Shown: in pieces, positions 242-52,992 of the stretch | Numbering within the stretch: position 1 is the stretch's first letter | How the letters are laid out: the number at the start of each line of letters is the position of its first letter | Translations under genes and position numbers: made by a program | The notes under the pieces: generated by a model | What the model saw: the letters and a program-made list of their open reading frames with translations, nothing else | Databases searched by the model: none | Told to the model about the DNA's origin: nothing | Source of the DNA: Candidatus Moraniibacteriota bacterium | GTDB taxonomy: Bacteria > Patescibacteriota > Minisyncoccia > Moranbacterales > GWC2-37-73 | Assembly: GCA_003507445.1 (NCBI GenBank) | Contig: DNVR01000008.1 | Location: 29,083 to 93,082 of the forward strand | Direction of reading: 5' to 3' | DNA: 64,000 bases

Positions 242-456
242 CAACACACAAAAGCATAGTGATTTTAAAAAAGGCTCTATCAAGAGCTTTTTTGCTTATC
301 ATTTTTAAAAAATGGCTTAGATAAAGCATTTTAAAGAATAAGGTTCTTAAAAAGTGCATAAAAGTGCTTGACCGCAACGCTTGTTTTTGGTACCATAAGA
401 TCTGCGTCCCAACACCTTGTTTATAACTGGGGCCATTAAATTGTTAAAAATAACTT

Positions 457-1389: not shown

Positions 1390-1591
1390 GTTCATCTGAA
1401 ATGTCGCTCCGCTACGCTCGCTCCATTTCAGATGAACGCGCGCGCCTGCCGTCGCTGTCATCTGCTGTGTTGCTTCTCCCTACGGTCGTGAGCAAACACA
1501 TCAGATAACAGCGCCTATCCGAAATTTCCCTCGCCCCGACTGCTGTCGGGACTCGTGAAACATCGGATCAGGCGCGCGCGTTCTGCGAAAT
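1390..1591. repeat. GC-rich structured repeat element, copy A (full core ~202 bp)
   Basis: Near-identical to 2791..2992. Contains nested stems: GTTCATCTGAAATG...CATTTCAGATGAAC, CGCGCGCGCCTG...CAGGCGCGCGCG and CCCGAC-TGCT-GTCGGG. GC ~58% in an AT-rich background. Confidence 0.8.
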
Positions 1592-1640
1592 AGCGAAAAA
1601 CATACCTTTATTAATAATTTTTTCAAGCCCTTTTGAAATA

Positions 1641-1676
1641 AAAAAATCCCCCGGTCAATCACCAGGGGACGGCAGT
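1641..1676 (-). terminator. rho-independent terminator for the minus-strand small ORF
   Basis: Hairpin CCCCTGGTGATTGACCGGGG followed by a T-run on the minus strand, immediately after the TGA stop at 1677..1679. Confidence 0.55.
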
Positions 1677-1843
1677 CATCTTTTCAGATTTTTCATCACT
1701 GCGTAGAATGAAGCTGCTGCTCCGCCAACCATTACAAGTGCGAGTAATCCGATTGCAATGGGCTCGTAAATCTTCGGGTAGGATATCGTGGAAACCGTAA
1801 AGAGTGCCGTCCCTACGCCAAAAACAAAAGCATCCCATTTCAT
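1677..1843 (-). CDS. small hydrophobic membrane protein (55 aa), not in supplied ORF track
   Basis: ATG preceded by AAGGAGG with 6-nt spacing. Translation MKWDAFVFGVGTALFTVSTISYPKIYEPIAIGLLALVMVGGAAASFYAVMKNLKR. Terminator downstream. Local GC ~50%. Confidence 0.45.
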
Positions 1844-2077
1844 AAAGAACCTCCTTGAGAGTTGATATTACAACACTTCAATGACTTCCTATCCTACACA
1901 CGAAGTATTGAAATGTCAAGTGGCAATATTTCAAAAGGGCTTGAAAAAATTGGGCTCAAAATAAGGAGTGTATGTTTTTCCGCTACATCGCAGAACAAGC
2001 AATATCTGGCTCAAAAGTCTTGCCTAATATATAATTAAATAAAGGAGTGCAAGATTTTTTCGACCCAAATTTGCCCT

Positions 2078-2192
2078 TCGCTACGCTCGATCAAACTTCA
2101 GATATTGCTAGACGTTCATCTGAAATTTTCCTCGCCCCGACTGCTGTCGGGACTCGTGAAACATCGGATCAGGCGCGCGCGTTAGATGAAAT
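2078..2192. repeat. GC-rich structured repeat element, copy B (internal-deletion derivative)
   Basis: Has the 5' arm (TTCGCTACGCTCGATCAAACTTCAGATATTGCTAGAC), GTTCATCTGAAAT, then jumps to the 3' part TTCCTCGCCCCGACTGCTGTCGGGACTCGTGAAACATCGGATCAGGCGCGCGCGTT. Confidence 0.7.
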
Positions 2193-2255
2193 ACCCAGAA
2201 ATTTCTTTTTTTATTTTAATATTTTTTTGCAATTCATAATTCTTAATACAAACCC

Positions 2256-2630
2256 ATGTTTAATCCAAATCGTCCACCATCAGAACAATTAGAAAATAAA
2301 ATGTTCACTATCGAGCTTAAGGATAATGAGTCCATTGTCGTTAAGGAAATGGAACCAGGTGTATTTAAAATAGTAGATAATAGTATAACAAAAAAAGATG
2401 AGCATCAGATGGCGGGCGAAACATTCATAGGCTTCGGAGAGTGGGATGATGAGGTTGAAGATTTAGATAGTCGTAGTAGCGATGCACGATATTTTGATAT
2501 GTCGGAACATCTCAGATGGGAAGATGTTGAGTTTATTGGTGATGATGAAATAAAGGCGCCATCACTAGATCGGCTGAAGCAAGCGTTGCAACACATAAAA
2601 ATACTTCCTTATAATCCCGAAGATATGTAA
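2256..2630 (+). CDS. hypothetical acidic protein
   Basis: 124-aa ORF between repeat copies. No recognisable motif. Confidence 0.3.
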   Translation: MFNPNRPPSEQLENKMFTIELKDNESIVVKEMEPGVFKIVDNSITKKDEHQMAGETFIGFGEWDDEVEDLDSRSSDARYFDMSEHLRWEDVEFIGDDEIKAPSLDRLKQALQHIKILPYNPEDM

Positions 2631-2748
2631 TTGCAAAATACATTAAGGAAAAAGAAATTTCTGGGTACATCACATAACAAGGCACATGCGGTTCAAAAAT
2701 TTTGCATCTTTTAAAATTAGAGGTGTGCAAAATTTTCTCTCCCAAATT

Positions 2749-2992
2749 TTTTTCGGCTATGCCTTCAGAAAAACTTCAGATATGCCTAACGTTCATCTGA
2801 AATGTCGCTCCGCTACGCTCGCTCCATTTCAGATGAACGCGCGCGCCTGCCGTCGCTGTCATCTGCTGTGTTGCTTCTCCCTACGGTCGTGAGCAAACAC
2901 ATCAGATAACAGCGCCTATCCGAAATTTCCCTCGCCCCGACTGCTGTCGGGACTCGTGAAACATCGGATCAGGCGCGCGCGTTGTGCGAAAT
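2749..2992. repeat. GC-rich structured repeat element, copy C (full, includes 5' arm)
   Basis: 2791..2992 nearly identical to 1390..1591. The 5' arm CCCAAATTTTTTTCGGCTATGCC...CTTCAGATATGCCTAAC is shared with copies B and D. Confidence 0.8.
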
Positions 2993-3443
2993 GCATGTTT
3001 TCCTTTTGGGCTAACGCCCTGGCTCAAAAAAGAATCCGATTTTGTTTTTTCTTTATTTTAAAGAGGGGTTAAAAAGGTGTTTTTCTGCTCTTTGGGGAGC
3101 AGAAAAATTATACAAAAATTATACATATTGATTTTATTTATAAGCCATGTTAACTTATTATTATCAGTTAAGAATTTGTTTGTAGATTATGTTCTTTGTA
3201 TCAATTGATGTTATCCCACAGAAAGGAGGAAACTGCTTATGCGGAAGCTTATTGTGCTGTGCGCAGTTGTAGCTCTGGCTTAGAGACCATACCGATTTGG
3301 CCGGCGTCGTCGCCCGGCCGCCAGAGAAACATTCGCCCCCGATTCAAGAAACGGAAGAACCGTCATGGTGTAACCGTGGATTCTTGAATTGGCATAACCG
3401 ATAAACCGCCAACAAATGGATATACCCCCAAGGAGGTAATACC

Positions 3444-3658: not shown

Positions 3659-3863
3659 ATTTGCCACCCCAATAAATACCACGTATAATTACCAATAAGG
3701 AGTATTGGCTCCAGGCCATTCACCCTTAGCCCCTCTTCCCAAAACAAAGACGAAATTCAATTAATTCATTACAGAAATGCTATTCCTCTGCTGAGGAATG
3801 AAAAGAAAAAACAAACATCGCACAACAACGAGTATCCGGTTTCGACTTTTTCGAAAGTCTTCA

Positions 3864-4898: not shown

Positions 4899-5083
4899 AC
4901 ATATTAAAAATAATTACTAAAAACTCTTTATTTTTAGGAAAGAAAAACTTTAGTTTCATTGCTTGAACCCGGCATATGTGGCTCGAAAAATTGACACTAT
5001 TAAAAAGTTCCAAATCAAGCATCATATTTGACGAAAATGAGTTAATTGGATATAATTGGATGTAGTTAATATATCCAAAAACT

Positions 5084-6172
5084 ATGGCTAATATAAAGCA
5101 AAAAGATATTAATATTGCAGACAAATTTTCAAAAAGGCTTGATAATATACCTGCGGAAATAATTTCAAAAATCGCCAAGATTGATGAATTAAAAGGCAGC
5201 TGGGTTTCTGGCACTCAACTAAGCTCGCAAGCACTGGGTCGTCTCAAGCGGTCTGTTTTGATAACCTCGACTGGAGCATCAACTCGTATTGAGGGTGTGC
5301 AACTTTCTGATGAGGATATTGAAAAAGTGATGCGCGGTATAAATATTCAAAAATTTGCTGACCGCGATAAGCAAGAAGTCAAGGGTTATTACGAACTTTT
5401 GGAAAATGTCTTTAATTCTTGGGGGAGTTTGAAATTCAACGAAAGTTCAATAAAACATTTCCACAAGGAGTTATTGAAATATTCAGAAAAAGACCAGGGT
5501 CATTTGGGTGATTACAAATTTGGAGAAAATAAAGTCGTCGCATACGATCATGAAGGAAAAGAGGTTGGGATAATTTTCAATCCCACTTCGCCATACCTCA
5601 CGCCCAAAGAAATGATTGAGCTTATTGAATCAACCAATTTTTTGCTTGCTGAAAAAAAATACCATCCGTTGCTAGTAATTGCAAATTTCCTGGTTGAATT
5701 TTTGGCAATTCATCCTTTTAAAGATGGAAATGGAAGAGTTTCTAGAGTTTTGACGAATTTATTGTTGCTTCAAAATGGATATCTGTATATGCCGTATGTT
5801 TCACATGAAAAACTAGTGGAAGACAATAAAACAGATTATTATCTTGCACTTAGGAGAAGTCAAAAGACTTTTCATTCAAAAAACGAAGACATTTCTCCAT
5901 GGTTAGAATTTTTCTTTACAATTTTATTACGACAATCACAATTTGCGATTGAATTATTGTCAAAAGAGAATATTGAAAAATTACTATCAGAAAGACAACT
6001 TGCAGTTTGGAAATTTTTTCAACAAGTTGAAATTACTGGAACAGGCGAGATTGTTGCTGGAACAAATATTCCGCGGCCAACCGTCAAGCAATCACTTGAG
6101 GTATTGTTGAAGTTGAAAAAAATAGAGAGAATAGGCCAAGGTAGAAGTGTGAGATATAAAAAGGTTGCTTAA
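5084..6172 (+). CDS. fic: Fic/DOC family protein (putative AMPylator) with N-terminal inhibitory helix and C-terminal winged-helix-like region
   Basis: Canonical Fic motif HPFKDGNGRVSRVL (HxFx(D/E)GNGRxxR). Upstream STRIEG matches the (S/T)xxxE(G/N) inhibitory motif of class II Fic proteins. Confidence 0.85.
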   Translation: MANIKQKDINIADKFSKRLDNIPAEIISKIAKIDELKGSWVSGTQLSSQALGRLKRSVLITSTGASTRIEGVQLSDEDIEKVMRGINIQKFADRDKQEVKGYYELLENVFNSWGSLKFNESSIKHFHKELLKYSEKDQGHLGDYKFGENKVVAYDHEGKEVGIIFNPTSPYLTPKEMIELIESTNFLLAEKKYHPLLVIANFLVEFLAIHPFKDGNGRVSRVLTNLLLLQNGYLYMPYVSHEKLVEDNKTDYYLALRRSQKTFHSKNEDISPWLEFFFTILLRQSQFAIELLSKENIEKLLSERQLAVWKFFQQVEITGTGEIVAGTNIPRPTVKQSLEVLLKLKKIERIGQGRSVRYKKVA

Positions 6173-12021: not shown

Positions 12022-12060
12022 TAAAATAAAAAATATAGGACTTACGCTTTTTCTCAACTA

Positions 12061-12141
12061 TTTCTTTTTTGGCACGCTTTTGGATAAATACTCAATATCC
12101 AAAAGCTCAAAGAGTTGCTGTCGCCAACTATTGGCCAAAAA
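12061..12141 (+). repeat. ~80-bp intergenic repeat (family 3), copy 1
   Basis: TTGGCACGCTTTTGGATAAATACTCAATATCCAAAAGCTCAAAGAGTTGCTGTCGCCAACTATTGGCCAAAAA. ~93% identical to 25725..25805. Contains a 10-bp perfect IR CTTTTGGATA/TATCCAAAAG. Confidence 0.8.
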
Positions 12142-12185
12142 AGAAATGTTTCGAAACGCGTAACTTCTGAAATAATTAAATCATT

Positions 12186-13909: not shown

Positions 13910-14040
13910 CGTGGTGGTCTTGCTTATTCCGCTTTATGTAAAAGTGGAAAAGGACGACATTAACTTTAATTTTTTCATATAACATATAGCATATAACATG
14001 AAACACAAAACAAAAATGTTATATGCTACATGTTACATGT

Positions 14041-24318: not shown

Positions 24319-25341
24319 ATGAAACAAAATTTAAATCCGATAGACAAGTCTAATATGAGACAGGTCATTCTTGATGGGCCTAGTCAATTTGAACTCGGTC
24401 TTTCTTTGGCGAGTGATATTAAGGTTGAAGGTAAATTTAGCTCCGTTATGATTTCGGGAATGGGCGGATCATCTCTGCCAGCCAATGTTCTCAGAACTTA
24501 TGTCAATGATTTGGCTAAAGGAAAGACGGAACATGCCAAGTATTTTAGTATATATCAAAATAGATTTTATACGCTTCCGCCAGAATCTTATTCGAACTGT
24601 TTGAATATAATTTCTTCCTATTCTGGAAATACCGAAGAAACAATAGCTTCGCTTGAGGAAGCACTTTTAAATGATTTACCTTGCGTTGCCATCTCAAGTG
24701 GCGGAAAAATAGAAAAAATATGCAAGAAAAAAAATGTTCCTTTTGTTAAGATTCCAGCTGGCATTGAGCCGAGAATGGCTACAGGATATTTTTTTGGAGC
24801 TATGTTCAAGATATTGGCAAATGTGGGTTTGGTAAATGATATGACGGAGAATATAGTGTCTATGTCTAATGCGCTTGCCAAAAATAGCTTCAATTTGGAG
24901 AAAAAAGCCATGGGCATTGCCGAAAAAATCAAGGGTAATATTCCCGTGGTTTATGCCAATACCAAATACAAATCTTTGGCTATGATATGGAAAATAAAGC
25001 TTAATGAGAATGGTAAAGTGCCAGCTTTCTGGAATTATTTTCCCGAGTTTAATCATAATGAAATGAATGGTTTTGCAAATACAAAGGGTGGATTTTTTGC
25101 TATTATGCTTAGGGATAAAGATGATCATCTTCAGAATTTAAAAAGGTACAATGCTGCTCAAAAAATACTTGAGACAAAAGGAATAAGCTCGGAGATAATT
25201 GATTTGGAAGGCTTTTCTGTTATTGAAAAAATATTCACCAGTTTGCATTTGGGAGATTGGGTTTCCTATTATTTGGCGCTGGCTAATAATCAGGATCCTA
25301 CACCAGTAGATATGGTTGAGGAATTTAAAAAATTGCTCTAG
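24319..25341 (+). CDS. SIS-domain bifunctional phosphoglucose/phosphomannose isomerase (archaeal type)
   Basis: ISGMGGSSLPANVL SIS P-loop-like motif. 340 aa, with size and layout of the PGI/PMI family. Confidence 0.5.
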   Translation: MKQNLNPIDKSNMRQVILDGPSQFELGLSLASDIKVEGKFSSVMISGMGGSSLPANVLRTYVNDLAKGKTEHAKYFSIYQNRFYTLPPESYSNCLNIISSYSGNTEETIASLEEALLNDLPCVAISSGGKIEKICKKKNVPFVKIPAGIEPRMATGYFFGAMFKILANVGLVNDMTENIVSMSNALAKNSFNLEKKAMGIAEKIKGNIPVVYANTKYKSLAMIWKIKLNENGKVPAFWNYFPEFNHNEMNGFANTKGGFFAIMLRDKDDHLQNLKRYNAAQKILETKGISSEIIDLEGFSVIEKIFTSLHLGDWVSYYLALANNQDPTPVDMVEEFKKLL

Positions 25342-25502
25342 CTTGCATTTCTTGTATCAACTTTTAAACTTAGGAAGACAAATTTGGAGATAATTGAAGT
25401 ACAGACTGGTAGTTACTTAGGCGAAGACGATATTGTACGCTACGAAGATAAATATGGTCGTAAAACGGGTGTGGCAGCCTAGCGTATATTTATAGTGCGG
25501 GG

Positions 25503-25531
25503 TTGACAAAAATACTTGTTGGGTGTATAAT
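25503..25531 (+). promoter_or_regulatory. consensus sigma70-type promoter (TTGACA-17-TATAAT)
   Basis: TTGACA at 25503..25508, 17-nt spacer, TATAAT at 25526..25531. No ORF for ~550 bp downstream until rnj. Confidence 0.6.
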
Positions 25532-25724
25532 TAATCTAATAAGTAATACTTCTTGAATTTTACCTTGTTTAAAGCTTTTTTTCTTCGAAACAAACAAACA
25601 AGTGCTCAAATTGACAAAAAGTCTCTTTATTAAGGGGTTTTTACTATTGTATTTAAAAATCAAATCTTTATATAAGTAAGTTATCGTTTCTTTAAATTTG
25701 GAACTTTTGCAATTGCTCGAATAT

Positions 25725-25805
25725 TTTCTTTTTGGCACGCTTTTGGATAAATACTCATTATCCAAAAGCTCAAAGAGTCGCTGTCGCCGACTATTGGCCA
25801 AAAAT
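25725..25805 (+). repeat. ~80-bp intergenic repeat (family 3), copy 2
   Basis: ~93% identical to 12061..12141, same orientation. Confidence 0.8.
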
Positions 25806-26081
25806 AAAATATTCTCACATTGCGAAAGTGAATGTTTAAACTCTGAATTTGTAATAATTGTGTAACGTGCTTTTGTAAGTTCACCCAGTCAAATTGCTTA
25901 CGCACCGCCTTTGGCGGATTTGACGGGGTAAACCCTGTTAAATAATTTTAATTTTTTTAAGAAAATTAAAATTAAGATTTGAGTCCTAAATTGAATTTAC
26001 GGGGTGTACTAAATTAAAAAATTAATATAATAAGTTTGTTTCTCTTATTTGTAGAGACTCAAATCTTATTTAATAGGGTAA

Positions 26082-27884
26082 ATGTTTAAAAAACAGTCAG
26101 AAGGCAGCAAGCCTTCAGTTGCGACTTCGGCGCATACAAAAAAACCGATGAAAAGAACAGGGAAGCAGATGGGGAAATCCCACAAAACCCAAACACCTTT
26201 GGGCAATGCACCAAGCAAAAACTTGCGCATCACGCCGATGGGTGGAAATGAAGAAGTGGGACGTAATATGACTATGTTTGAATATGATGGAGACATCATT
26301 ATCTTGGATATGGGAATTCAATTTCCAGAGGAAGATATGCCGGGGATTGATTATATCATTCCAAACATAAGTTATCTGAAAGGCAAGGAGAAAAATGTTA
26401 GAGGTGTGATTTTGAGTCACGGACATTTGGATCATATTGGAGCCGCTCCAATTTTGCTCAAAGAACTTGGTTATCCTCCAATTGTTGGACGTGATTTAAC
26501 CTTGGCTTTGGTCAAGAAAAAAATGGAAGACTATGACACTAATTCTGCTCAAAATCTGAAAATAATCAGAGTTAATGCTATCACTGACAAAGTTAGACTT
26601 GGAAAATTTGAAATTGAATTTTTTGATGTTGAACACAGCGTGATGGATGCGGTTGGTGTTATTATTAAAACTCCAGATGGCACAGTGATTCATCCTGGGG
26701 ATTGGACAATGGACAAAAATCCAACCGATCACAAAATGGTTACATATGACCATCTTTCTAAATTGCCTTCACCAAAAATCTTGATGTTGGAAAGTTTGGG
26801 AGCAACTGACACGCGCCCTACTCAAAAGTCAGAAGTTGAGATGTATAAAAATCTTGATGATTTGGTGGGTAGTGCTAAAGGAATGGTTATTATCGGAACA
26901 TTTTCTTCGCAAATTAAGCGTATTGGAAAAATAATCGAATATGCTGAATCTATTGGAAAAAAAGTGGCTCTTGATGGTTATAGTATGAAAATGAACATTG
27001 AAATTGCCAAGGAATTGGGATATATCAAAGCTCACAAGCAAACACTGATAACAGTAAATGAAATTCAAAAGCATCCAAGAAACAAGGTGGTGGTGATTTG
27101 TACAGGAGCGCAAGGCGAGGGAAATGCTGTGCTTTCAAGAATTGTTAATGATGAACATCGCTTTATTCATATTATGCGTGAGGATACGATTGTGTTTTCA
27201 TCTTCGATTATTCCTGGAAATGAAAGAACGATTCAACGTCTTAAAGATGATTTGTATCGAAAATGTGACAATGTTATTCATTCTGACATTTTGGATGTGC
27301 ATACTAGTGGTCACAGCAATGCGCGCGACATTCAAGATATTATTGGTCAAATTAAACCTGATTATTTCTTGCCGGTATATGCTAATCACTATTTTCTCAA
27401 AGAAGCTGCGAAGCTTGGGGAAAAAGTTGGTGTGCATCGAGACAATATCTTTGTGTTGGATAATGGTAACCAGCTTGAATTTGCTGGTGGAAAGGCTAAA
27501 ATGCTTCCACAGAAAATTGATACTAGCTATGTGATGGTTGATGGGCTTGGAATTGGCGACATCGGCGAAATCGTCCTCAGAGACAGGCAACTTTTGGCGA
27601 AGGACGGGATGTTTATGATCGTGGTTGTTATTGATTCAAAAACCAAAAAAATCATCGGAACTCCCCAAATCACATCGCGAGGCTTTATTTTCGTCAAAGA
27701 AAATTTTGACTTGGTAAACGCTACCAAGCGTGTGGTGGAAAAGGTGGTAAAAGAAAAGACTTCTCCAGATGTTTCAGTTAATTGGGACTATGTGAAAAAC
27801 AATATTCGCGAAGCAGTTGGATCATTTCTGTTTACTAAAACAGAGCGAAGACCGATGGTTTTGCCTGTTGTTATTGAAGTCTAA
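26082..27884 (+). CDS. rnj: ribonuclease J (metallo-beta-lactamase / beta-CASP) with basic N-terminal extension
   Basis: HGHLDHIG zinc motif and beta-CASP region. 600 aa, with a ~50-aa Lys/Ser-rich N-terminal tail. Confidence 0.85.
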   Translation: MFKKQSEGSKPSVATSAHTKKPMKRTGKQMGKSHKTQTPLGNAPSKNLRITPMGGNEEVGRNMTMFEYDGDIIILDMGIQFPEEDMPGIDYIIPNISYLKGKEKNVRGVILSHGHLDHIGAAPILLKELGYPPIVGRDLTLALVKKKMEDYDTNSAQNLKIIRVNAITDKVRLGKFEIEFFDVEHSVMDAVGVIIKTPDGTVIHPGDWTMDKNPTDHKMVTYDHLSKLPSPKILMLESLGATDTRPTQKSEVEMYKNLDDLVGSAKGMVIIGTFSSQIKRIGKIIEYAESIGKKVALDGYSMKMNIEIAKELGYIKAHKQTLITVNEIQKHPRNKVVVICTGAQGEGNAVLSRIVNDEHRFIHIMREDTIVFSSSIIPGNERTIQRLKDDLYRKCDNVIHSDILDVHTSGHSNARDIQDIIGQIKPDYFLPVYANHYFLKEAAKLGEKVGVHRDNIFVLDNGNQLEFAGGKAKMLPQKIDTSYVMVDGLGIGDIGEIVLRDRQLLAKDGMFMIVVVIDSKTKKIIGTPQITSRGFIFVKENFDLVNATKRVVEKVVKEKTSPDVSVNWDYVKNNIREAVGSFLFTKTERRPMVLPVVIEV

Positions 27885-27933
27885 AAAGTTTAAAAAGTTG
27901 AAAGTTCATAAGGTTCATAAAGCCTATGAGATA

Positions 27934-27963
27934 AAAAACCAGTCAGTTTGACTGGTTTTTTTG
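27934..27963 (+). terminator. rho-independent terminator
   Basis: AAAAACCAGTCA-GTT-TGACTGGTTTTT. Confidence 0.7.
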
Positions 27964-28288: not shown

Positions 28289-28882
28289 ATGCAAGAAAAG
28301 AAAAAAATAAAAATGTTATCTTCGTGGTTTGTTGACCACTTTCATTTGATTTTTAAGTCTGCGGCAGACAATCATTTGCGTATTCAAAATGCGCTTAAAA
28401 ATCCGGACGGAACTTTTCAATTGACGCTGCGATTTAAATCGTATAGTGAACTAAAAAAATATCAAAAGAAAATAAGAACCATTTCTGTCAGTCTTTCTTC
28501 TGCTGTTGCGATGGTGGCAGTGGCGTTTATTGTTGCGCCGTATATTATGAACCCTAGTCGTTCGAGCGCTGCTAGTTTTCAATGGACACAAAATAGTTGG
28601 GCGGCAGGCGCAGGTGCAGAATCAGCAACAAAAACTGGTTGGACAAAATATGCTTCAAAAGATGAAAATATCACAGCAGCGGAAGCGGGTATTTCCCTCA
28701 CACTCCCAACTCCTCAAAGTGTCGCGGAGAATGCAGATGCTGATTTTACTGGCGCGCAGACAGGCGATGGGTTCTATACTAATGGATCTGGACAGCTGCT
28801 ACTCAAAAAACCAACGGGCGCAACTTGCGGCGTTGGCGGAGAATGCGCAAGCGGGACCTGCACTTCGACGCTGTGTACGTGA
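28289..28882 (+). CDS. small secreted Cys-rich protein, paralog of the N-terminal part of 41687..42835
   Basis: Shared blocks HLRI, YQKKIR, TM helix, WTQNSWAAGAGAE, KTGWTKYASKDENI. C-terminal Cys cluster CGVGGECASGTCTSTLC. Confidence 0.6.
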   Translation: MQEKKKIKMLSSWFVDHFHLIFKSAADNHLRIQNALKNPDGTFQLTLRFKSYSELKKYQKKIRTISVSLSSAVAMVAVAFIVAPYIMNPSRSSAASFQWTQNSWAAGAGAESATKTGWTKYASKDENITAAEAGISLTLPTPQSVAENADADFTGAQTGDGFYTNGSGQLLLKKPTGATCGVGGECASGTCTSTLCT

Positions 28883-29031
28883 GAACTGCAACCCCAGTTA
28901 AATACTGCGGAGTACCGCAATTTAACGGGGTAAACATACAACATACAACAAAATACAGAATACAAAACATATAACATATAGCATGTAACAAATAGATACT
29001 AAATACTAAATACTAAATACTAAAAAAACTT

Positions 29032-30241: not shown

Positions 30242-33200
30242 ATGGGTGTAATCGGAATAAGGAAAAATATAAAAAGCAAAAATTGGGGACTGAAAATTAT
30301 TTCAGCGTTTTTTGCTTTGAGTTTCTTTTTTGTGGCTGTCGCTTCAGCTGAAGTCGCTCCAACAATCTCTGAAATTTCTCCAAATAATGGGTTGCCAGAG
30401 GGTGGAACAAGTGTGACGATAACTGGAACAAATTTTTCTCAAAGTACAATAGATGCAAACACGAAATTGTTGATTCAAGGTAACGGCACAGGTGCAAGCT
30501 TCGTTGATTCTGAAATAACCCCAAAGACAGTTACCGCTGTTGGAAATGTCACCCAATCTTCTGCGCAGTCAAAATTTGGAGGATCAAGTGTTTATCTTGA
30601 TGGAAATGGCGATTATTTGTCTTTAGCGGACAGCGAGGATTGGGCTTTTGGCACAGGAGATTTCACAATGGATATGTGGGTTAAAACAACCGAATCTGAT
30701 GGTTTCTTGCTTTCTCAGATGCCTTCAAATGGTGCAGCGGGAGTTGCTAGTTTTTATTCAGTTGTGAGTGTGGATGGAAAAGTTATTTTTGTTCCTGATT
30801 ATGTTTCCTACCCAAGTCATCACACTATAACATCAACAGTTTCTGTTAATGATGATGCTTGGCATCACATCGCATTTGTTAGGAACGGCGCATATATAAG
30901 AATGTATATTGATGGAACAGAAAGTGGCACAGCTTTAAATATGGGCGCTGGTTTTACTATGACAAATTCTGCTGAACTTTTGAAAATAGGTAGCATTGGG
31001 CTTCCAGAAAATTACAGTCCTTATGGTGGGTATATTGATGAAATCCGTGTTTCCAAGGGGATTGCTCGCTGGACCAGCAATTTTACACCTCCATCTTCTG
31101 AAAATCATTTGCAATCAACATTAACAATCGGTGGAACTTCTGCCACAAATATTGCAGTTACAAGCCCAACTACAATTACCGCCACAACTCCTGCTCACGC
31201 TGCGGGTGCAGCTGATGTAGTGGTTACAAATTACGACGGTCAATCTGCAACACTGACAAGCGGATATACTTTCAATGCTGCTCCAACCATTTCTGCAGGA
31301 GCTGTTACTCCAGCGAGTGCAAAACTTACGGGTGGCGACACAATTACAATTACAGGATCTGGTTTTTATGGAACTCCAAGTGTAACTCTTGGTGGAACAG
31401 CTGCGACTGCTGTTACAGTAGTAAATCCAACCACAATCACCGCGACAACCCCAGCACATTCTGTTGGTGCTGTTGATGTTGTGATTACAAATGAAGATTC
31501 GCAAAGCGCGACACTTGCAAACGGATTTACATTCACGGAACTTCCACCGACAGTTTCAGGAATTTCTCCAAGTGCTGGTTCACCTGCTGGCGGAACAAGT
31601 GTGACGATAAGTGGAACTAATTTTTTGGTTGGAGATGTTGATACATACACTAAAGTGTTGCTGCATGGTGATGGCACGGGAGCAAGCTTTGTTGATTCTG
31701 AATTAATCCCAAAAGTAGTTACAGCAGTTGGCAATGCTACTCAATCTGCTGCGCAATCTAAATTTGGAGGGAAAAGTATGTATTTTGATGGGAGTGGTGA
31801 TTATCTTGATTTGGCAACCTCTGCTGATTTTGGTCTCGGCACAGGTGATTTTACTGTGGATTGTTGGGTAAATTTCTCCACTGTAACTAATGCAATATTT
31901 GTGAATACCACTAGTTCAGCAAATGGATTCTTTTTTCAATACTATAATAATGCTTTTACTTTTGGTCAAAATAATGTAGGTTTTGTAATTAATACACCTT
32001 GGACGCCTTCTATAAACACTTGGTATCACATAGCAGTGACAAGGGCGAGTGGCACAACCAAAGGCTTTATTAATGGAACGCAAATAGCATCTGTTAGTGA
32101 TAATTATAATTACGCTAACAATATATTGCGCGTAGGTGAAAGCGTTAATGGTTATCTAGATGAAGTCCGTGTTTCAAAAGGGATTGCTCGTTGGACTAGT
32201 AATTTTACACCGCCGTCTGCTGAATATCACTCACAACCAATGTTAACTTTTGGCGGAATCTATGCTACAAATGTCGCAGTCACAAACCCAACTACAATTA
32301 CCGCTACAACTCCTGCTCACACTGCAGGTGCAACTGATGTTGTCGTCACAAATTACGATGGACAAAGTGCAACACTAACAAGTGGTTACACTTTCAATCC
32401 TGCGCCAACAATTTCTGCTGGAGCAGTTTCTCCAGCCAGTGCCTTGAAGACAGGAGGCGACACAATTACAATCACGGGAACAGGATTTTATGGCACACCT
32501 ACCGTAACTTTGGGAGGAACAGCTGCGACTGCTGTTACAGTAGTAAATCCAACCACAATCACCGCGACAACCCCAGCACATTCTGTTGGTGCTGTTGATG
32601 TTGTGATTACAAATGAAGATTCGCAAAGCGCGACACTTGCAAACGGATTTACATTTACAGAACTTCCATCAACAGTTGGATCAATTTCTCCAAATAATGG
32701 AACTGTTGCAGGTGGAACCAATGTGACGATTACGGGGACGAATTTTATTGAAAACAGCGCAACAGGTGGAACGATTACAACCTCTGGAGAATATACAGTG
32801 CATACATTTACAGGAAGTGGAACGTTTGTGCCGAATAATGAGATGGATGTTGAGGTTTTGGTTGTTGCTGGCGGAGGTGGAGGTGGAGGTGGAGAACCTA
32901 GTGCTGGCGATTCTGGTGGTGGTGGAGGAGCTGGAGGATACAGAACTGCAAATCTTACAATATCATCAGAATCTCATAATGTGACTGTGGGTGCTGGAGG
33001 CGCAGGTGCAGCAGGAACATCTTTACCAGGAAATAAAGGGAATGATTCAATTTTTGATTCCATAACTGCAGCAGGTGGAGGTGCTGGTGGAATAGAGGGC
33101 GGAAGTGGTGGAGCTGGAGGATCTGGAGGTGGAGCTGGAGGTCTCTGTTCAGTTCCAGTTTCAGGAGGAGCAGGTAATACGCCAGCAACGACACCAAGTC

Positions 33201-36200
33201 AAGGAAATAATGGAGGATTTACACCCGGGACAACTTGTTCTGGGCGAGCTGGTTCTGGCGGTGGTGGTGCTGGCGGTGTTGGAGGTGCAGGAACCACTGT
33301 TAGTGGCGCTGGTGGTGCGGGCGTAGCAAGTGATATTACCGGAACTTCTATAACAAGAGCTGTTGGTGGTGCTGGCGGACAAAGCGGCAGTGGAACAGGT
33401 ACAGCAGGAGCTGCAAACACTGGAAATGGTGGAAAAGGAGGAGGAATAAGTTCTGCTGGTGGTGCAGGAGGAAGCGGTGTTGTTATTGTTAGATATTTGA
33501 CCCATAAACCAGTAGTTACCATCGGTGGAACTTCTGCTACAAATGTCGCAGTCACAAGCCCAACCACCATCACTGCCACAACTCCCGCACATACCGCAGG
33601 CACAGCTGATGTGGTGGTTACGAATTATGACGGACAATCTGCAACGCTGACAAATGGATACACTTTCAATCCTGCGCCAACAATTTCTGCAGGAGCAGTT
33701 TCTCCAGCCAGTGCAAAACTTACTGGAGGCGATACAATCACAATCACTGGAACGGGATTTTATGGCACACCTACCGTAACTCTTGGAGGCACAGCTGCGA
33801 CTGCTGTTACAGTAGTAAATCCAACAACAATCACTGCGACAACTCCCGCACATTCTGTTGGCGCTGTTGATGTTGTTATTACAAATGAAGATTCTCAATC
33901 CGCAACTCTTACCAATGGATTCACTTTCACAGAACTTCCACCAACACTAAGTTCAATTTCTCCTGATAACGGTCCAGTAGCAGGGGGAACTAATGTGACG
34001 ATAAGTGGTACGAATTTTGTCGCTGGGTCTGTAAGTGCAATTGGCGGAACAATAACAACTGATGGTGATTATACGGTACACACATTTACAGGTAGTGGAA
34101 CATTTACAGCTGATAGTGATATGCCTGTGGAGGTTCTGGTTGTTGCTGGTGGTGGAGGTGGCGCAGGAATGGCTGAATCTGGTGGAGGTGGAGGAGGTGG
34201 AGTGCAACATCATACTTCATGGCCAATAAATGCTGGTGCAAATTATAGTGTTGTAGTTGGAAATGGTGGTTTAGGTGCTACAAGTGTTTCAAATGGTGCA
34301 AATGGTGCAAATTCATCTTTTGGCGAATTGATTGCTAATGGAGGTGGTGGAGGAGGTGGATTTATCGGTTTAACTCCAGGATCTGGAGGTTCAGGCGGTG
34401 GATCTACGCGAGGAGTTGCTGCAGGATTGAGTAATCAAATTTCAATTAATGGTTCAAATTCTTACGGAAATCCTGGAGGTGTTGGATGGCCAAGTGGATA
34501 TACGGCTGGAGGTGGTGGAGGTGCTGGTTCTGCGGGAGGAAATGCTACTAGTGGAGTGTATCCAGATGGAGGTGTTGGAGGTGCTGGAAGAGCATTTGAT
34601 ATTTCAGGAACATCAACATATTATGCTGGAGGTGGTGGAGGAATTTATGCTTATGGTGGTATTGGTGGTGGAGGCAATGGTAATATGGGAACAGTTGAAT
34701 CTTATAATGGTGTGGCTAATACTGGAGGTGGAGGAGGTGGAGGAGCTAATGTAGTTGGAGGAGATGGTGGTTCTGGAATTGTAATAGTGAGATATTTGAC
34801 AAAGGCTAAATTGCCAACCGTAATAATCGATGGAATTGCAGCTACAAATGTTTCACTTGTGAACCCAACCACAATAACAGCAACCACTCCTGCTCACACT
34901 GCAGGTGCAACTGATGTTGTCGTCACAAATTACGATGGACAAAGTGCAACACTAACAAGTGCGTTTGAATATCACAATTGGATTACGGCAGGAACGTATA
35001 CCTCAACAGTTAAACCTCTGGCTAATGTTGGATTTGGAAACATTGATTGGGTTGCTGGCACGCCTGCTAATACTAATTTGACAATGCGAGTAAAATCTTG
35101 CACCTCTGCTGATTGCAGCGACAAACCAAGTTGGTCTGGATGCGACTTGGCTGCGCTGGACAATGGTACCGATATTTCCGGTAAGGGTTGTGTGGTGGAT
35201 GGCCAAGGTTATGTTCAATATCAAGCATATCTTTCAACTGATTCAAATTCTGCTCAGCCATATCTCGACAGCGTCACAATTTCAACTCAACCAGAATATT
35301 CCAAAACATTTTTAAGTCTCATTTCTTCTCCTTTTGATACGGGAAATGAAAGCAACAGTGTTCAAAAAATTTCTTGGACTGCAACAAATGACAACTTGGC
35401 AACTCAGGGACAAGTGGCAATACAAATTCGAACTGCACCGGATAATGGCGGAATTCCTGATTTTACAAATTCAGTTTGGTGTGGGCCGACTGATTGCAGC
35501 GGCACAACAAATTCAACAACAGCTTTTGCAATCAGTTATTACACTGACAAAACAGGGGCTCTTGCGATAAATGCAATTAACAAGGATCTTAGTGATGATC
35601 GTTGGATTCAATATGCAACATTCTTGAAATCAGCTGATGGAACTTTGACTCCGACATTGACTGATGTGACGATGCAATATGCATATAACACTCCACCAGC
35701 AATTACAATTGACAGCAACCCAATATTTTTAAAGCAAAATGCAGATGGAACTTTCTCTGTTCCATACACCTTAAGTGAAACTTATGATGATTTTGGTAAC
35801 ATTCCTCACGGAACAGCTGGTTCTCCGATTAAAGCACTTCTTTTTTATCAACCGAAAAATGACATCACAATTGAAGAACTTACAAATGTTCGAACAGGAA
35901 TTGTCACCCTCAATAATCCAAGCAATCTTCCAATTCCATCGCAAGGTTCAATGCTGATTGGCGATGAGTTGATGACTTTTGATTCAGTTGGAGCAACTGG
36001 AAATCAAAGAAACATCACAGCGCGTGGAATTGCTTTTGCAACTTCATATCCAACCACGGCTGCTGCACACTTGGCAAATTCCGCAGTATTTTTTGCAACT
36101 TCAGCTTCGATTCAAACAATCGATACGCTTGTTGAGACGGGCATAGTTGGCGCTGAGGCATCCGTATCAAATATGTTCTCTTGGAATCCAAGAACTGATG

Positions 36201-39200
36201 TCAATACAAATTTGAATGGTAACAAACTTTCAGACGTGGTTTTCAAAGTTGCTGCCAACGACGCTGATTCAACCAACATTAATAATATCGGACAAAGCAG
36301 TGCGACCACTTCGCAAGTTCTGGATTTGGAATCTCCTTTGATTAAAAATGTCACTTCATCTTCGGCTGATGGGAAATATAACGCTGGAAAAAATGTGGAC
36401 GTCACGATTAATTTTGCTGACAGTCTTGGCAACGCAAAGAATGTGACTTCAACAGGCGCTGTCACGATAGTTTTGGAAACTGGCGTTAATGATTATGAAT
36501 GCTTGATCCCATCTATCACAAACGCATCAAGCGCATCTTGCACATATCAAGTCCAAACAGGCGATGTTAGCGAAGATCTAACTGCAATTTCTGTAAGCGG
36601 AACAATTAAAGATCAATTCCAAAACACTCTTTCAAACTTTGCGATTCCAGCAGGACAAAACATTGCTGATTCAAAAGCTATTGTTATCGATACAATTTCT
36701 CCAATCATTTCAGGTGTGTCGCCAGCAGCAAGTGCGTTTGTAAATTCAATCACTAGCGCTAATGGTGGCTCTGATATTTCGTATGAAGCGACAGAACTTT
36801 TAAAAACAGGATCATATGTTAAATTCACTTCAACTTCGGGAACAGATTTGAACACCGAATATCTTTGCACTTTGCAGGGAACAGCACTTGAGGTTGGCGT
36901 GCACAGTGGTTTTGAAATCAAACAAGATGCAAACAACTGCACTGAAGTTCAAAGCGCGCTTCAAAGTGGTTCTGTTTATACAATGACAATTCACGCCATT
37001 GACGAAGCTGACAATGCCAGTGACCAAACAATTGCAAATATTAATTTTGACACAACCAATCCGACAGCTAGCGTAACTTCCCCATCAAACGATGCCTTTT
37101 TCAACAGCATTACAACTGGCTCAGATGTTTCATATAATCTTGATGAACAGTTGCAAGCAGGCAGTTATCTTAAATTCACTAGAACTGCTGGTAGCGCTGA
37201 TGGATCTTCTCCGCGAACTTGTAATTTGACAGGGACTGAGCTTGAAGAAGGTGATCATAATAATGTGGACTTGAACGCTGTCTGTGGAGGATTTGCTTTA
37301 GTAGATGGTGCAGTTTATTCAATTGATCTTTTCGCTAAGGACTTGGCTGGAAATGAGGCAAATGCAACACAAAAAACAAATGTTACTTTTGACCAAACTG
37401 CTCCAACACTCAACTCATTTACTTCAGACAAGGCCAACAACACGCCAGCTACAGCTTATGGCGCAGGGGAAGTGATTGATATTAAGGCGGTTTACAGCGA
37501 ATCATTGGCAGTTGGCTCAACAATGACAGTTAGATTGGAAAACACAGCAACGCCCGCTGTTGATGTTGTGCTCGATCAAATTGCTGGAAATGTGCTTTCG
37601 GGAACATTTGTTGTGGACGGTCCGCGTAAGGGATATGACACGGCTGATTTGACTTTGCGATCAATTGTTTCTCAAAATGCTATCGATCAAGCTGGCAATG
37701 TTAAAACTGATTCGGCGATACCGTTTGGACAAAACTTAGGAGACAACAAAGACATTGCGATTGATACAGGAACTCCAATTCTGGAAAGTTTTGCTGCTCA
37801 AAAACTTCCTGAGAATTCAACAAGCGGTTCTTACAAAGCAGGAACGGAAATAAAAATAACCGCGACATATTCCAAACCAATTGCCTCTGGCGAAATCACG
37901 CTGCATCTTAATACTCAAAATGGAGCTGAAGACATTGAAAACATTGTATTGTCAACAATTTCAGGTTCTACAATTTTCGGCACACACACTGTGCAAAATC
38001 TGGACAACGCTGAAGACTTGAAAGTTTTTGCCATCACTGCTCAAAGCGTTACTGACTTTAAAGGTAATGTGCTTGATAGAACAGGAACAATGACTGAATA
38101 TGACGCATATTTCACTTCGCTTGTTGGCGAAAACATTTCTGCTGTTACAAATATTTCCAATTTCAAAATTGACACAACTGCGCCAACACTTGGAGCAACG
38201 CCAATTGCCATTGCAAATGTCGCAGGAAAAACTAGCAGTGCAACCCCAGTGATAACATTGTCTGCAACTGATAATGATATTTCTAAAGCAATCTTCTCAT
38301 TGGATGGGGGAACTTCTTGGTGTGCTCCAATTGATTATGGTGCAACAATAAACACATTTGACATTACATCTAGTGCTTGCGGTGGTTCTGCTTCCAACGA
38401 AGTAAAAACTGTCACAGTCAAGTTCAGCGATGTTGCTGGCAATGAGAGTGCAACTTCCAGCGCTTCAGTTGAATATGATAATTTGAAACCACAGTTGCAA
38501 ACAATTACTGCTGATGTGGTCGGCGGAATCTATGGACCAAATTCAGTTATTAAAATCACTGCAACATATGACGAAGACATTGCCAGTGGAACATTAGTTG
38601 TCAATCTTAACAATGGAAAGCAGCTTACGATTAATACTGTCGAAACGGCCAGAACACTGGTGGCAAATTATACTGTTGGCGCAACTATTAGTGGCGAAGA
38701 CACAAGCGCGCTTCGTGTAGCTGCAATTGTTTCGCAAGCTGTTTCTGATTCAGCTGCCAACACGCAAGACGGAACCAGTCTGGCTGGAATAACTGCCAAC
38801 ATCGACACTGATAAAACAATTATAATTGATACTACTGCGCCAAGCGCTGCTGCGCCAGACGGCTCGATTGTTGCTGACAGGGCAAGCGAAGAAAACAAAA
38901 TAAAAATTACAATTTCTCCTGATGATTGGGGTGTGGCAAAGGATGAAATGACCGCTCAAATTGCGCTGATGGACACGGTGGTTGCTTGCAACTTTACTGG
39001 CGCAAATGCAGCAGTCTTCAACAGTGAATTTCCAAAAACATTTACATATGATGACCTTGCAGGCGCAGTGAAAAAAGTTTGTGTTAAATTGACTGACAAG
39101 GCGGGGAACATTTCTTCTGATTTCAGTGTGGTCACTCCAAACACTCCTGAAAATTTCGTGTATACTGATCTTACCAGCGCGACGTTTACAGGTGCGATTT

Positions 39201-52144: not shown

Positions 52145-52561
52145 CTATGCCATTCCTGGCGACATTATGTAGGTTTGTTCTCGCAAACCTCCAACACGAG
52201 GAAGCACATAGCGTGGTTTTTCGGTTGTGCATTTAAAACAAAAAGGCGCTGTCGGCATTGCTTTTAAGCGAGCAATGGGAATGTCTTCCTTACATTTGCA
52301 ACATATCCCGTACGTCTCATTATCAAGACGTCGCAGTGCTGCAGTGCAAGCCGCTATCGTTTCTCTGCATCTCGGGTTATTTACTGCTTGAAGAGACCGC
52401 TCATTGTGATCTGGTCCCTCCGACTCTATGCCACTGTTGCCCTTATATGAAAAAACAGGTTCATCAGGGCAAACGTCACAAATTATACCCCTCGTTGCTT
52501 CTTCGAGCATTCTCATTATAACTTCTCGTGCAGACTGTAATTCCTCGTTGTTTAATGACAA
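52145..52561 (-). CDS. DksA/TraR-family C4 zinc-finger protein, TTG start
   Basis: C-x2-C-x17-C-x2-C zinc finger at the C-terminus with upstream coiled-coil-like region. AAGGAG-6nt-TTG start. The longer track ORF is an upstream extension. Confidence 0.6.
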   Translation of the reverse strand: MSLNNEELQSAREVIMRMLEEATRGIICDVCPDEPVFSYKGNSGIESEGPDHNERSLQAVNNPRCRETIAACTAALRRLDNETYGICCKCKEDIPIARLKAMPTAPFCFKCTTEKPRYVLPRVGGLREQTYIMSPGMA

Positions 52562-52778
52562 AGCGATTCTCCTTTTTAAAAAAAGATAAGATTTTTCCCC
52601 TTTAATAAAGCAAAAATACGAGCACTTACCACCAAAACATAATTTCATTGAAAAAGAACAACAATTAAGCACTAATCTATTATTATACTCCTTTTATCGA
52701 AAAATGTCAAGACTTTTAAATTCCTGACATTTTCCGACAATAATGCTGTGCCACGTGATGAGCGTAGCGAATTTTACG

Positions 52779-52863: not shown

Positions 52864-52895
52864 TACGGGGTCCACTGAGCTACAAGGACAACTTC
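52864..52895 (-). pseudogene. partial tRNA-like fragment (acceptor + D-arm only) adjacent to tRNA-Arg
   Basis: Minus strand reads GTCCTTGTAGCTCAGTGGACCCCGTAC. Shares TAGCTCAGTGGA with the neighbouring tRNA D-arm and then breaks off. Confidence 0.3.
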
Positions 52896-52992
52896 ACATA
52901 ACACGTATCATAGAACATGGAACAAAAAAAATCAATAGATTACGCACTTATTACATTTATGCTCTATGTTTTATGCTATATGCTATATGACC

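Follow-up and report, generated by a model that had tools for sequence, protein, structure and literature searches.

The ribonuclease gene rne of Escherichia coli carries an autoregulatory 5' untranslated region (UTR). In the same species, the metY-nusA-infB-...-pnp operon is headed by a tRNA and contains internal leaky terminators, and 3'ETS-leuZ is a small RNA (sRNA) derived from a tRNA-operon spacer. Bacteria also harbour small palindromic repeats, among them the REP, Correia, RUP and BOX-type elements. To our knowledge, almost nothing has been learned about non-coding RNA or the control of RNA decay in the Candidate Phyla Radiation (CPR)/Patescibacteria, whose members have not yet been grown alone. 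In Helicobacter pylori, rnj is under negative feedback that acts on its 5' UTR (PMC5874925), and rny of Bacillus subtilis is a further ribonuclease gene with an autoregulatory 5' UTR (PMC10303841). Here, the region preceding rnj, the gene for RNase J, was analysed in a 64-kb stretch (the window) of a Candidatus Moranbacteria (CPR/Parcubacteria) genome. This region is a mosaic of a conserved leader, the site of a lost tRNA, a split hairpin and dispersed repeats (Table 1). Its most probable interpretation, at roughly even odds (about 50%), is an operon leader or attenuator that is conserved, may in addition be freed as a small RNA, and was later colonised by repeats resembling miniature inverted-repeat transposable elements (MITEs).

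Like rne, rny and H. pylori rnj, the Moranbacteria locus places a strong promoter and a long untranslated leader before the gene of a major enzyme of RNA decay. This leader, too, is conserved within its lineage, here with a conserved hairpin (P3) near the coding start. In contrast to those systems, with which it shares neither sequence nor structural similarity, its conserved part is predicted to be unstructured and the locus ancestrally embeds a tRNA gene; feedback by RNase J is hypothetical here.

The region from 25342 to 26081 was compared across 80 rnj loci (numbered with the prefix L), and the homologues are metagenome-assembled and mutually related. The RNase J of the window is 99% identical to that of L001, from the metagenome-assembled genome (MAG) GW2011_GWC1_36_108, and 55-97% identical to those of 79 other CPR loci. 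The promoter and the next ~130 nt are conserved in many relatives, whereas most of the remaining region is not. A first-pass annotation of this DNA had described a perfect promoter with no open reading frame (ORF) between it and rnj, and both observations hold. The hexamers TTGACA (25503-25508) and TATAAT (25526-25531) are separated by a 17-nt spacer and form the best site in the surrounding 8 kb; the pattern TTGACA-N16-18-TAYAAT has two sites in 64 kb, compared with 0.12 expected. Both hexamers and the 17-nt spacing are conserved among the relatives that carry the promoter, and in every one of these it is on the rnj strand and linked to rnj. In L002 and L014, the plus strand has no other promoter-like site from the upstream gene to rnj. 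Transcription would start at about 25538, and the short ORFs (up to 103 aa) that overlap 25532-26081 have no Pfam match (best E=0.13).

The first ~105 transcribed nucleotides (25538-25642) form the conserved leader. Comparison of the leader with those upstream of rnj in related genomes, which had been proposed together with the first-pass annotation, showed that the promoter and ~105 nt are kept in 32 Moranbacteria loci (nhmmer profiles, E<=1e-9), in all cases upstream of rnj and on the same strand. A metagenome scan that used the core pattern and not rnj recovered eight loci, and a same-strand rnj lies downstream in 8/8. Weaker versions, which retain the promoter together with an ACTTCTT motif located ~10-20 nt after the transcript start, are present in more distant Moranbacteria (L030-L032, L026 and L027). 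The invariant core of the leader is mostly 88-100% identical where third codon positions of rnj are ~50-60% identical, and its identity is lower, at 60-83%, in L002, in L008 and among the most diverged versions; overall, it is under strong purifying selection. In L003, L005 and L008, insertions of 30-55 nt are located just upstream of the second conserved block. A near-invariant leader beside coding DNA that is saturated at silent sites, always tied to the gene for the main 5'-exoribonuclease, makes a candidate cis-regulatory RNA or sRNA that can be tested.

In the first-pass annotation, the whole of the ~550 nt between promoter and rnj had been taken for a structured leader. This description does not survive the comparison, as the conserved part is only ~105 nt long and is predicted to be nearly unstructured. 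RNAalifold returned essentially no consensus structure for 16 leaders (-0.39 kcal/mol), and the leader of the window folds no better than shuffles (single-sequence z = -0.13). Two candidate pairings between the conserved blocks, CUUGUUU/AAACAAG and AAAGCUU/AAGCUUU, are mutually exclusive and vary on one side only. A small GCUU-loop-AAGC hairpin before the central U-run is clear in diverged leaders and mismatched in the ACC variant of the window. The leader was searched against Rfam 15, T-box, 6S and SRP included, and matched no family; at the gathering threshold, the whole window contains only tmRNA and tRNAs, a sensitive scan of 25300-26200 gave a best E of 0.23, and a scan of four relatives found tRNA only. 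No description of the element was found in the literature. It appears to be a lineage-specific operon leader or sRNA candidate that belongs to no Rfam family and is hitherto undescribed.

Two sites in the window resemble parts of this region. The one other perfect TTGACA-17-TATAAT (52682-52710, minus strand) lies close to tRNA-Arg, on its downstream side, and precedes a leader of ~120 nt and a TTG-initiated ORF near 52560. Within that leader, TTTTTGCTTTATTAAAGGGG is similar to the small GCTTT..AAAGC hairpin found in diverged rnj leaders; the site was not matched in the profile search with the rnj leader element. A weak match to the leader profile at 307-334 (minus strand), GCTTTATCTAAGCC followed by ATTTTTT, has the small hairpin and U-run shape seen in the central part of diverged leaders, and may represent a common weak terminator type of this genome.

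As for the control of read-through, the two CTTCTT-like motifs and the G-poor, pyrimidine-rich core suggest a single-strand RNA-binding factor or, equally, the decay machinery itself. Alternatively, the conserved block may act as DNA, as an operator or roadblock for a DNA-binding regulator at approximately +10 to +50. The primary sequence is indeed conserved with no covarying structure, and an ACTTCTT-like motif is repeated at a spacing of ~20-32 bp even in diverged members (the CTTCTT-like pair of the window is ~30 bp apart). However, the 30-55 nt insertions between the blocks are tolerated, the dyad symmetry typical of operators is not seen, and the hairpin downstream covaries as expected of RNA, so that a DNA operator is improbable. 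The complementarity of 10 nt of the core to AACAAGGUAA, which we take to be the universal 16S rRNA 3' region, was discarded: it was judged post hoc and does not persist in diverged members.

It is even harder to credit that the leader encodes a peptide of an attenuator, for which the only candidate is a 26-aa ORF (MNFTLFKAFFL...) that starts at TTG 25553 and stops within the loop of the leader hairpin. In the window, L014 and L006, this frame is uninterrupted up to a stop codon in the hairpin loop, and there is a faint match to the Rfam family Phe_leader (RF01859). Yet that match scores 17.9 bits, far under the gathering score of 55, and the ORF has no Pfam match. Across homologues its length ranges from 0 to 68 codons and a 6T/7T polymorphism alters the frame; L010 and L012 have no start codon left, a stop follows immediately in L021, L057 and L009, and the stop is lost even in the near-identical L001. 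As length, frame, start and stop are all unconserved, a coding leader is refuted by the comparison.

The leader closes with a weak hairpin (arms 25622-25627 and 25632-25637) and a run of five U residues (25638-25642). A hairpin directly precedes the U-run in 20 of the 23 distinct homologues, built from at least 15 different stem sequences, and the summed hairpin energy has a z of -12.5 relative to shuffles. The stems include UCUCUU/AAGGGG, UCCC/GGGA, ACCCU/GGGGU, CUCUU/AAGAG, GCGCA/UGCGU, UUUCCC/GGGAAA and CUUUC/GAAAG, a pattern of covariation. All of the leader hairpins are weak (-1.6 to -6.9 kcal/mol) and contain many G-U pairs. The terminator scan did not call the hairpin of the window, which lacks a stable G+C-rich terminator stem; the terminator of rnj itself (27928-27957) has a much longer and clearly stronger stem. 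In the model adopted here, the hairpin and U-run form an intrinsic terminator or attenuator that is leaky, or else mark where a released leader RNA has its 3' end.

Two more specific roles for this hairpin were examined. The 5' CUUCUU can pair with the purine-rich 3' arms and could in principle form an antiterminator, but on inspection (for example of L012, L014 and L018) there is no covariation. Antitermination by NusB/NusE at an rrn-type boxA, with its GCUCUUUA-like consensus, was set aside because the 5' arm of the hairpin is not conserved as a sequence, while its pairing is kept: UGCUCUUU is present in L004, L014, L017, L022 and L082, and elsewhere the arm reads CCCUUU, UCCA, GCGCA or UUUCCC.

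Most relatives carry a tRNA-Leu(CAG) gene between the leader element and rnj, and a tRNA-Leu is found directly upstream of rnj as far as Magasanikbacteria and Falkowbacteria. The distance from the start of the U-run to the 5' end of the tRNA is 23 nt in L002, 25 in L008, 36 in L024, 40 in L084 and 44 in L022, and there is thus little or no space for a separate promoter. With the tRNA adjacent and a single promoter, the element is probably the 5' leader of a leader-tRNA-rnj transcript, and its hairpin would be partly read through. The tRNA is not detectable and the leader is kept in the window, L001/L088, L003/L086, L004, L005/L087, L012, L015, L018 and L082; in L003 and L082, the rnj ATG is within ~100 nt after the leader. 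Therefore, the tRNA alone does not explain the conservation of the leader. By this comparison, the genome of the window appears to have lost the tRNA-Leu(CAG) of the locus (25643-26081), and in one subclade the rnj locus may currently be losing this gene.

Additional tRNA-like sequences are visible nearby in some relatives. An apparent decayed tRNA-like remnant is present in the alignment of L005 (~3735-3800) and L087, where ARAGORN makes no call. Similarly, partial tRNA-Leu-like sequence is seen by eye upstream of the intact tRNA in L014 (~3380-3440) and L085 (~5010-5100), broken by GCCTGCC-rich repeats (GCCTGCCTGCCGATAGGCA...) that form another small repeat family.

As in the metY-nusA-...-pnp operon, a tRNA would be co-transcribed with a gene of RNA metabolism, and weak terminators would have to be read through. 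As for 3'ETS-leuZ, tRNA processing may yield a stable small RNA from the transcribed spacer or leader. Unlike in either case, however, the conserved piece in Moranbacteria precedes the tRNA as a 5' leader and outlasts the loss of the tRNA, and, unlike 3'ETS-leuZ, it has no known sponge or target function.

The same observations bear on whether the leader is instead an independent, trans-acting sRNA of ~100 nt whose core pairs with other mRNAs, with rnj expressed from its own promoter and the synteny merely inherited. A consensus promoter combined with a covarying hairpin and U-run is what such a gene would show, the long unstructured invariant block resembles a seed, the element is kept where the tRNA is lost, and a search for a second copy in the window found none. 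Nevertheless, this reading is rather unlikely. In L002 and L008, only 23-25 nt separate the U-run from the tRNA, and no other promoter-like site was found in L002 or L014. Moreover, the hairpin is much weaker than clear terminators of this genome, such as that at 27928-27957, and in closer relatives the similarity runs ~15 nt past the U-run. RNAduplex comparison of the leader with the 64-kb window gave only G-U-rich matches of low specificity. The first-pass annotation had suggested either a regulated 5' UTR or a promoter-driven non-coding RNA; the conserved promoter and non-coding segment are consistent with both.

Beyond the leader, a conserved segment proximal to rnj is common to L002, L003, L004, L082 and L084 and contains the P3 hairpin. 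RNAalifold predicts 17 pairs from six sequences, and four of these have compensatory changes, which is modest evidence. In the window, the two arms of P3 are separated by the repeat that the first-pass annotation designated family-3, and they still pair around the repeat in the window's own fold. The annotation had correctly recognised family-3 as repetitive: 25694-25813 matches 12031-12150 at 85%. Further copies are present in L008, L088, L087 and L001. L088 has three matching stretches, one of them in opposite orientation at the rnj locus, and both L088 and L008 carry family-3 at a different position or orientation. The sequence AATTTG occurs on both sides of the element (25695-25700 and 25846-25851), and the empty site of L084 has a single AATTTG (by eye).

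The short palindrome that follows P3 corresponds to one of the hairpins of the form CCCAGTYAAAT...ATTTRACGGGG reported previously. Such hairpins do occur at 25884-25928 and do recur in the window, although the second copy occupies 28892-28930 and not 28891-28937. The associated TTTRACGGGGT motif is exact at 25918-25929 (ATTTGACGGGGT), but the second copy claimed, at 25996-26007, reads TTTACGGGGTGT and is missing one motif base; with up to one mismatch, the motif occurs seven times compared with 1.8 expected. L001 lacks the palindrome at the 25884-25928 site although the flanks align, and its 28892-28930 site is occupied. Other copies are found in L019/L020 (minus strand, downstream of rnj) and L037. 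The 3' arm of the palindrome can pair instead with 25933-25943, and in the terminator scan 25918-25943 forms a terminator-like hairpin with a U-rich tail.

A third repeat, a palindromic element of 148 nt, ends 2 nt before the rnj ATG and supplies a Shine-Dalgarno (SD)-like AGGG (26075-26078), which is paired with 25933-25936 in the fold. It holds an A/T palindrome and the inverted repeat noted in the first-pass annotation just before rnj (inverted repeats I9, I4 and I5). The inverted repeat is real, but its dimensions differ from the 12-bp arms and ~80-nt spacing given: the arms (25970-25985 and 26056-26071) are 16 nt long, 94% complementary and 70 nt apart. The 148-nt element is directly before the ATG in the window, L001/L088, L007 and L009, and is absent in the closer relatives L002-L006; a further copy is located in L014 (8996-9124, minus strand). 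By eye, L084 has another kind of palindromic insertion between the GTAAGTAAAAAAAT segment and the rnj ATG (minus strand of the locus), flanked by an inverted repeat (ATGTCCAGTAGT...ACTACTGGATAT). That a different palindrome is at the same spot suggests an insertion hotspot before the rnj start codon, and this spot seems to attract palindrome insertions in several lineages.

All three repeats have terminal inverted repeats, form hairpins (I2, I4, I6, I9 and I12), match no protein family and have dispersed copies, and insertion polymorphism at the rnj locus is seen for family-3 and the short palindrome. They appear to behave like MITE/REP-type elements, although no partner transposase was identified and no search was aimed at one. 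As in MITEs and in REP, Correia, RUP and BOX-type elements, terminal inverted repeats, long hairpin folds and a non-coding nature are combined with dispersed intergenic copies and insertion polymorphism, AATTTG stands on both sides of family-3, and some copies lie right after stop codons in the fashion of terminators. The likeness is one of features, and copies are few, at two to three per 64 kb.

The strong predicted folding of the region stems from dispersed repeats and not from a conserved regulatory structure. It is accordingly very improbable that all 550 nt constitute one structured, regulated rnj 5' UTR in which the repeats are functional structures, as the first-pass annotation had proposed. 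The repeat segments do fold far better than shuffles: the family-3 fold has a free energy of -52.5 kcal/mol (z -8.2), that of the 148-nt element -38.5 kcal/mol (z -3.9), and the short palindrome has a z of -3.4. Additionally, the SD-like AGGG could be masked through its pairing with the 148-nt element's 3' terminal repeat, and the 25884/25918 pairing might face competition from the hairpin at 25918-25943 and its U-rich tail. However, each hairpin is a dispersed repeat with copies at unrelated sites. The short palindrome is absent from this site in the 99%-identical L001, the position or orientation of family-3 differs in L088 and L008, and the 148-nt element is absent from the closer relatives L002-L006, so that this model is largely refuted by comparison. 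The family-3 repeat, the CCCAGTYAAAT hairpins and the inverted repeat are hence dispersed palindromes where leader structure had been supposed, and at least the first two are polymorphic between near-identical strains. In these A+T-rich genomes, mobile palindromes gather ahead of essential genes and can mimic riboswitch-like structures.

Taken as a conserved operon leader or attenuator, the locus would have the following history. The promoter at 25503 would be that of an old Moranbacteria unit consisting of promoter, non-coding leader of ~105 nt, tRNA-Leu(CAG) and rnj. The weak hairpin and U-run would act as a leaky terminator or attenuator at which part of the transcripts end or are cut. Where the tRNA is present, RNase P would free the leader; by termination, cleavage or RNase P, an sRNA-like RNA of ~100 nt could be produced. 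Read-through transcripts would provide the tRNA (where present) and rnj, with P3 as a second conserved hairpin in the rnj-proximal untranslated region. In the genome of the window, the tRNA would have been deleted and three palindromic MITE-like repeats would have inserted in the interval from leader to ATG, one within the loop of P3. These insertions would have stretched an untranslated region of ~200 nt to ~550 nt, making most of the visible "structure".

Several points weigh against this reading. The transcription start, 3' ends, read-through, promoter, terminator and co-transcription are all predictions, and a hairpin followed by a U-run is also the appearance of an independent sRNA gene. 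The conserved core has no covarying structure that could be found, and no ligand, protein or target can be assigned to it. L016 has a tRNA-Leu upstream of rnj but no recognisable leader element, and the leader is thus not obligatory. Because the homologues are related MAG sequences, copy counts do not represent independent events. Finally, the 25918-25943 hairpin and the three long palindromes could block read-through, and rnj here may therefore need another start. A candidate internal start is a TATAAT at 26026-26031, which has no -35 element; expression of rnj in the window may depend on either read-through or an internal start.

By analogy with the ribonuclease genes mentioned above, autoregulation of RNase J through the leader is possible. 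In an extended and more doubtful version, the leader and P3 would be the cis-acting sensor of a Moranbacteria-wide RNase J feedback, the weak hairpin would set transcription of tRNA-Leu and rnj, and the leader might be a new CPR sRNA. Processing of the tRNA would then generate a processed 5' end of the rnj mRNA guarded by P3, and the lifetime of this mRNA would hinge on the 5'-exonuclease activity of RNase J.

Table 1. Features of the rnj region of the window and the second copy of the short palindrome.
Feature	Position	Strand	Basis or remarks
sigma-70-type promoter TTGACA-17-TATAAT	25503..25531	+	12/12 score; hexamers and spacing kept in 32 related loci
Invariant leader core ACTTCTTGAATTTTACCTTGTTTAAAGCTTTTTTTCTTC	25548..25586	+	Pyrimidine-rich, G-poor, two CTTCTT-like motifs; alignments
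Second conserved leader block AAACAAG..CTCAAAT	25596..25611	+	AAACAAGCTTTCAAAT in most relatives; alignments
Weak hairpin UCUCUU/UAUU/AAGGGG and U5	25622..25642	+	-2.9 kcal/mol
P3 hairpin, 5' arm	25674..25686	+	RNAalifold; window fold
Family-3 palindromic MITE-like element	~25701..25845	+	Inserted in the apical loop of P3
P3 hairpin, 3' arm	25860..25876	+	RNAalifold; window fold
Short palindrome CCCAGTCAAAT-[CCGCC TTT GGCGG]-ATTTGACGGGG	25884..25928	+	Fold z -3.4
148-nt palindromic element	25932..26079	+	14-nt terminal inverted repeats ACCCTGTTAAATAA / TTATTTAATAGGGT
rnj, RNase J, 600 aa	26082..27884	+	Pfam RNase_J_b_CASP, RNase_J_C, Lactamase_B, RMMBL
Short palindrome, second copy CCCCAGTTAAAT...ATTTAACGGGG	28892..28930	+	Starts 10 nt after the stop codon of ORF 28289-28882

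Relative to the window, L002 has an RNase J that is 97% identical, a leader core that is 83% identical and an rnj-proximal region of a different type. That coding and non-coding sequences diverge to such different degrees may be a sign of recombination at the rnj locus. Just upstream of the 25503 promoter, a 32-codon ORF (25384-25482, plus strand), MEIIEVQTGSYLGEDDIVRYEDKYGRKTGVAA, matches just the last 22 positions of the Pfam family MannoseP_isomer (PF01050, E=8e-7). L009, L010 and L016 have coding sequence at this position that ends with the same motif, and the ORF of the window looks like the stump of a deleted mannose-6-phosphate isomerase/cupin gene.

Other repeats are present elsewhere in the window. 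A CATATAACATATAGCATATAACA-like motif is repeated at 13976-14028, 28968-28990, 52895-52917 and 52949-52989 (repeat families D19, I1 and I6); it adjoins the tmRNA gene, closely follows the 28892-28930 palindrome and occurs around tRNA-Arg. A set of direct repeats of 84-202 nt, one pair of which is 100% identical, is found at 1390-3001 (D8 and D9), and a 3703-aa ORF at 30242-41353 (plus strand) contains long internal repeats (families D1-D7 and D11).

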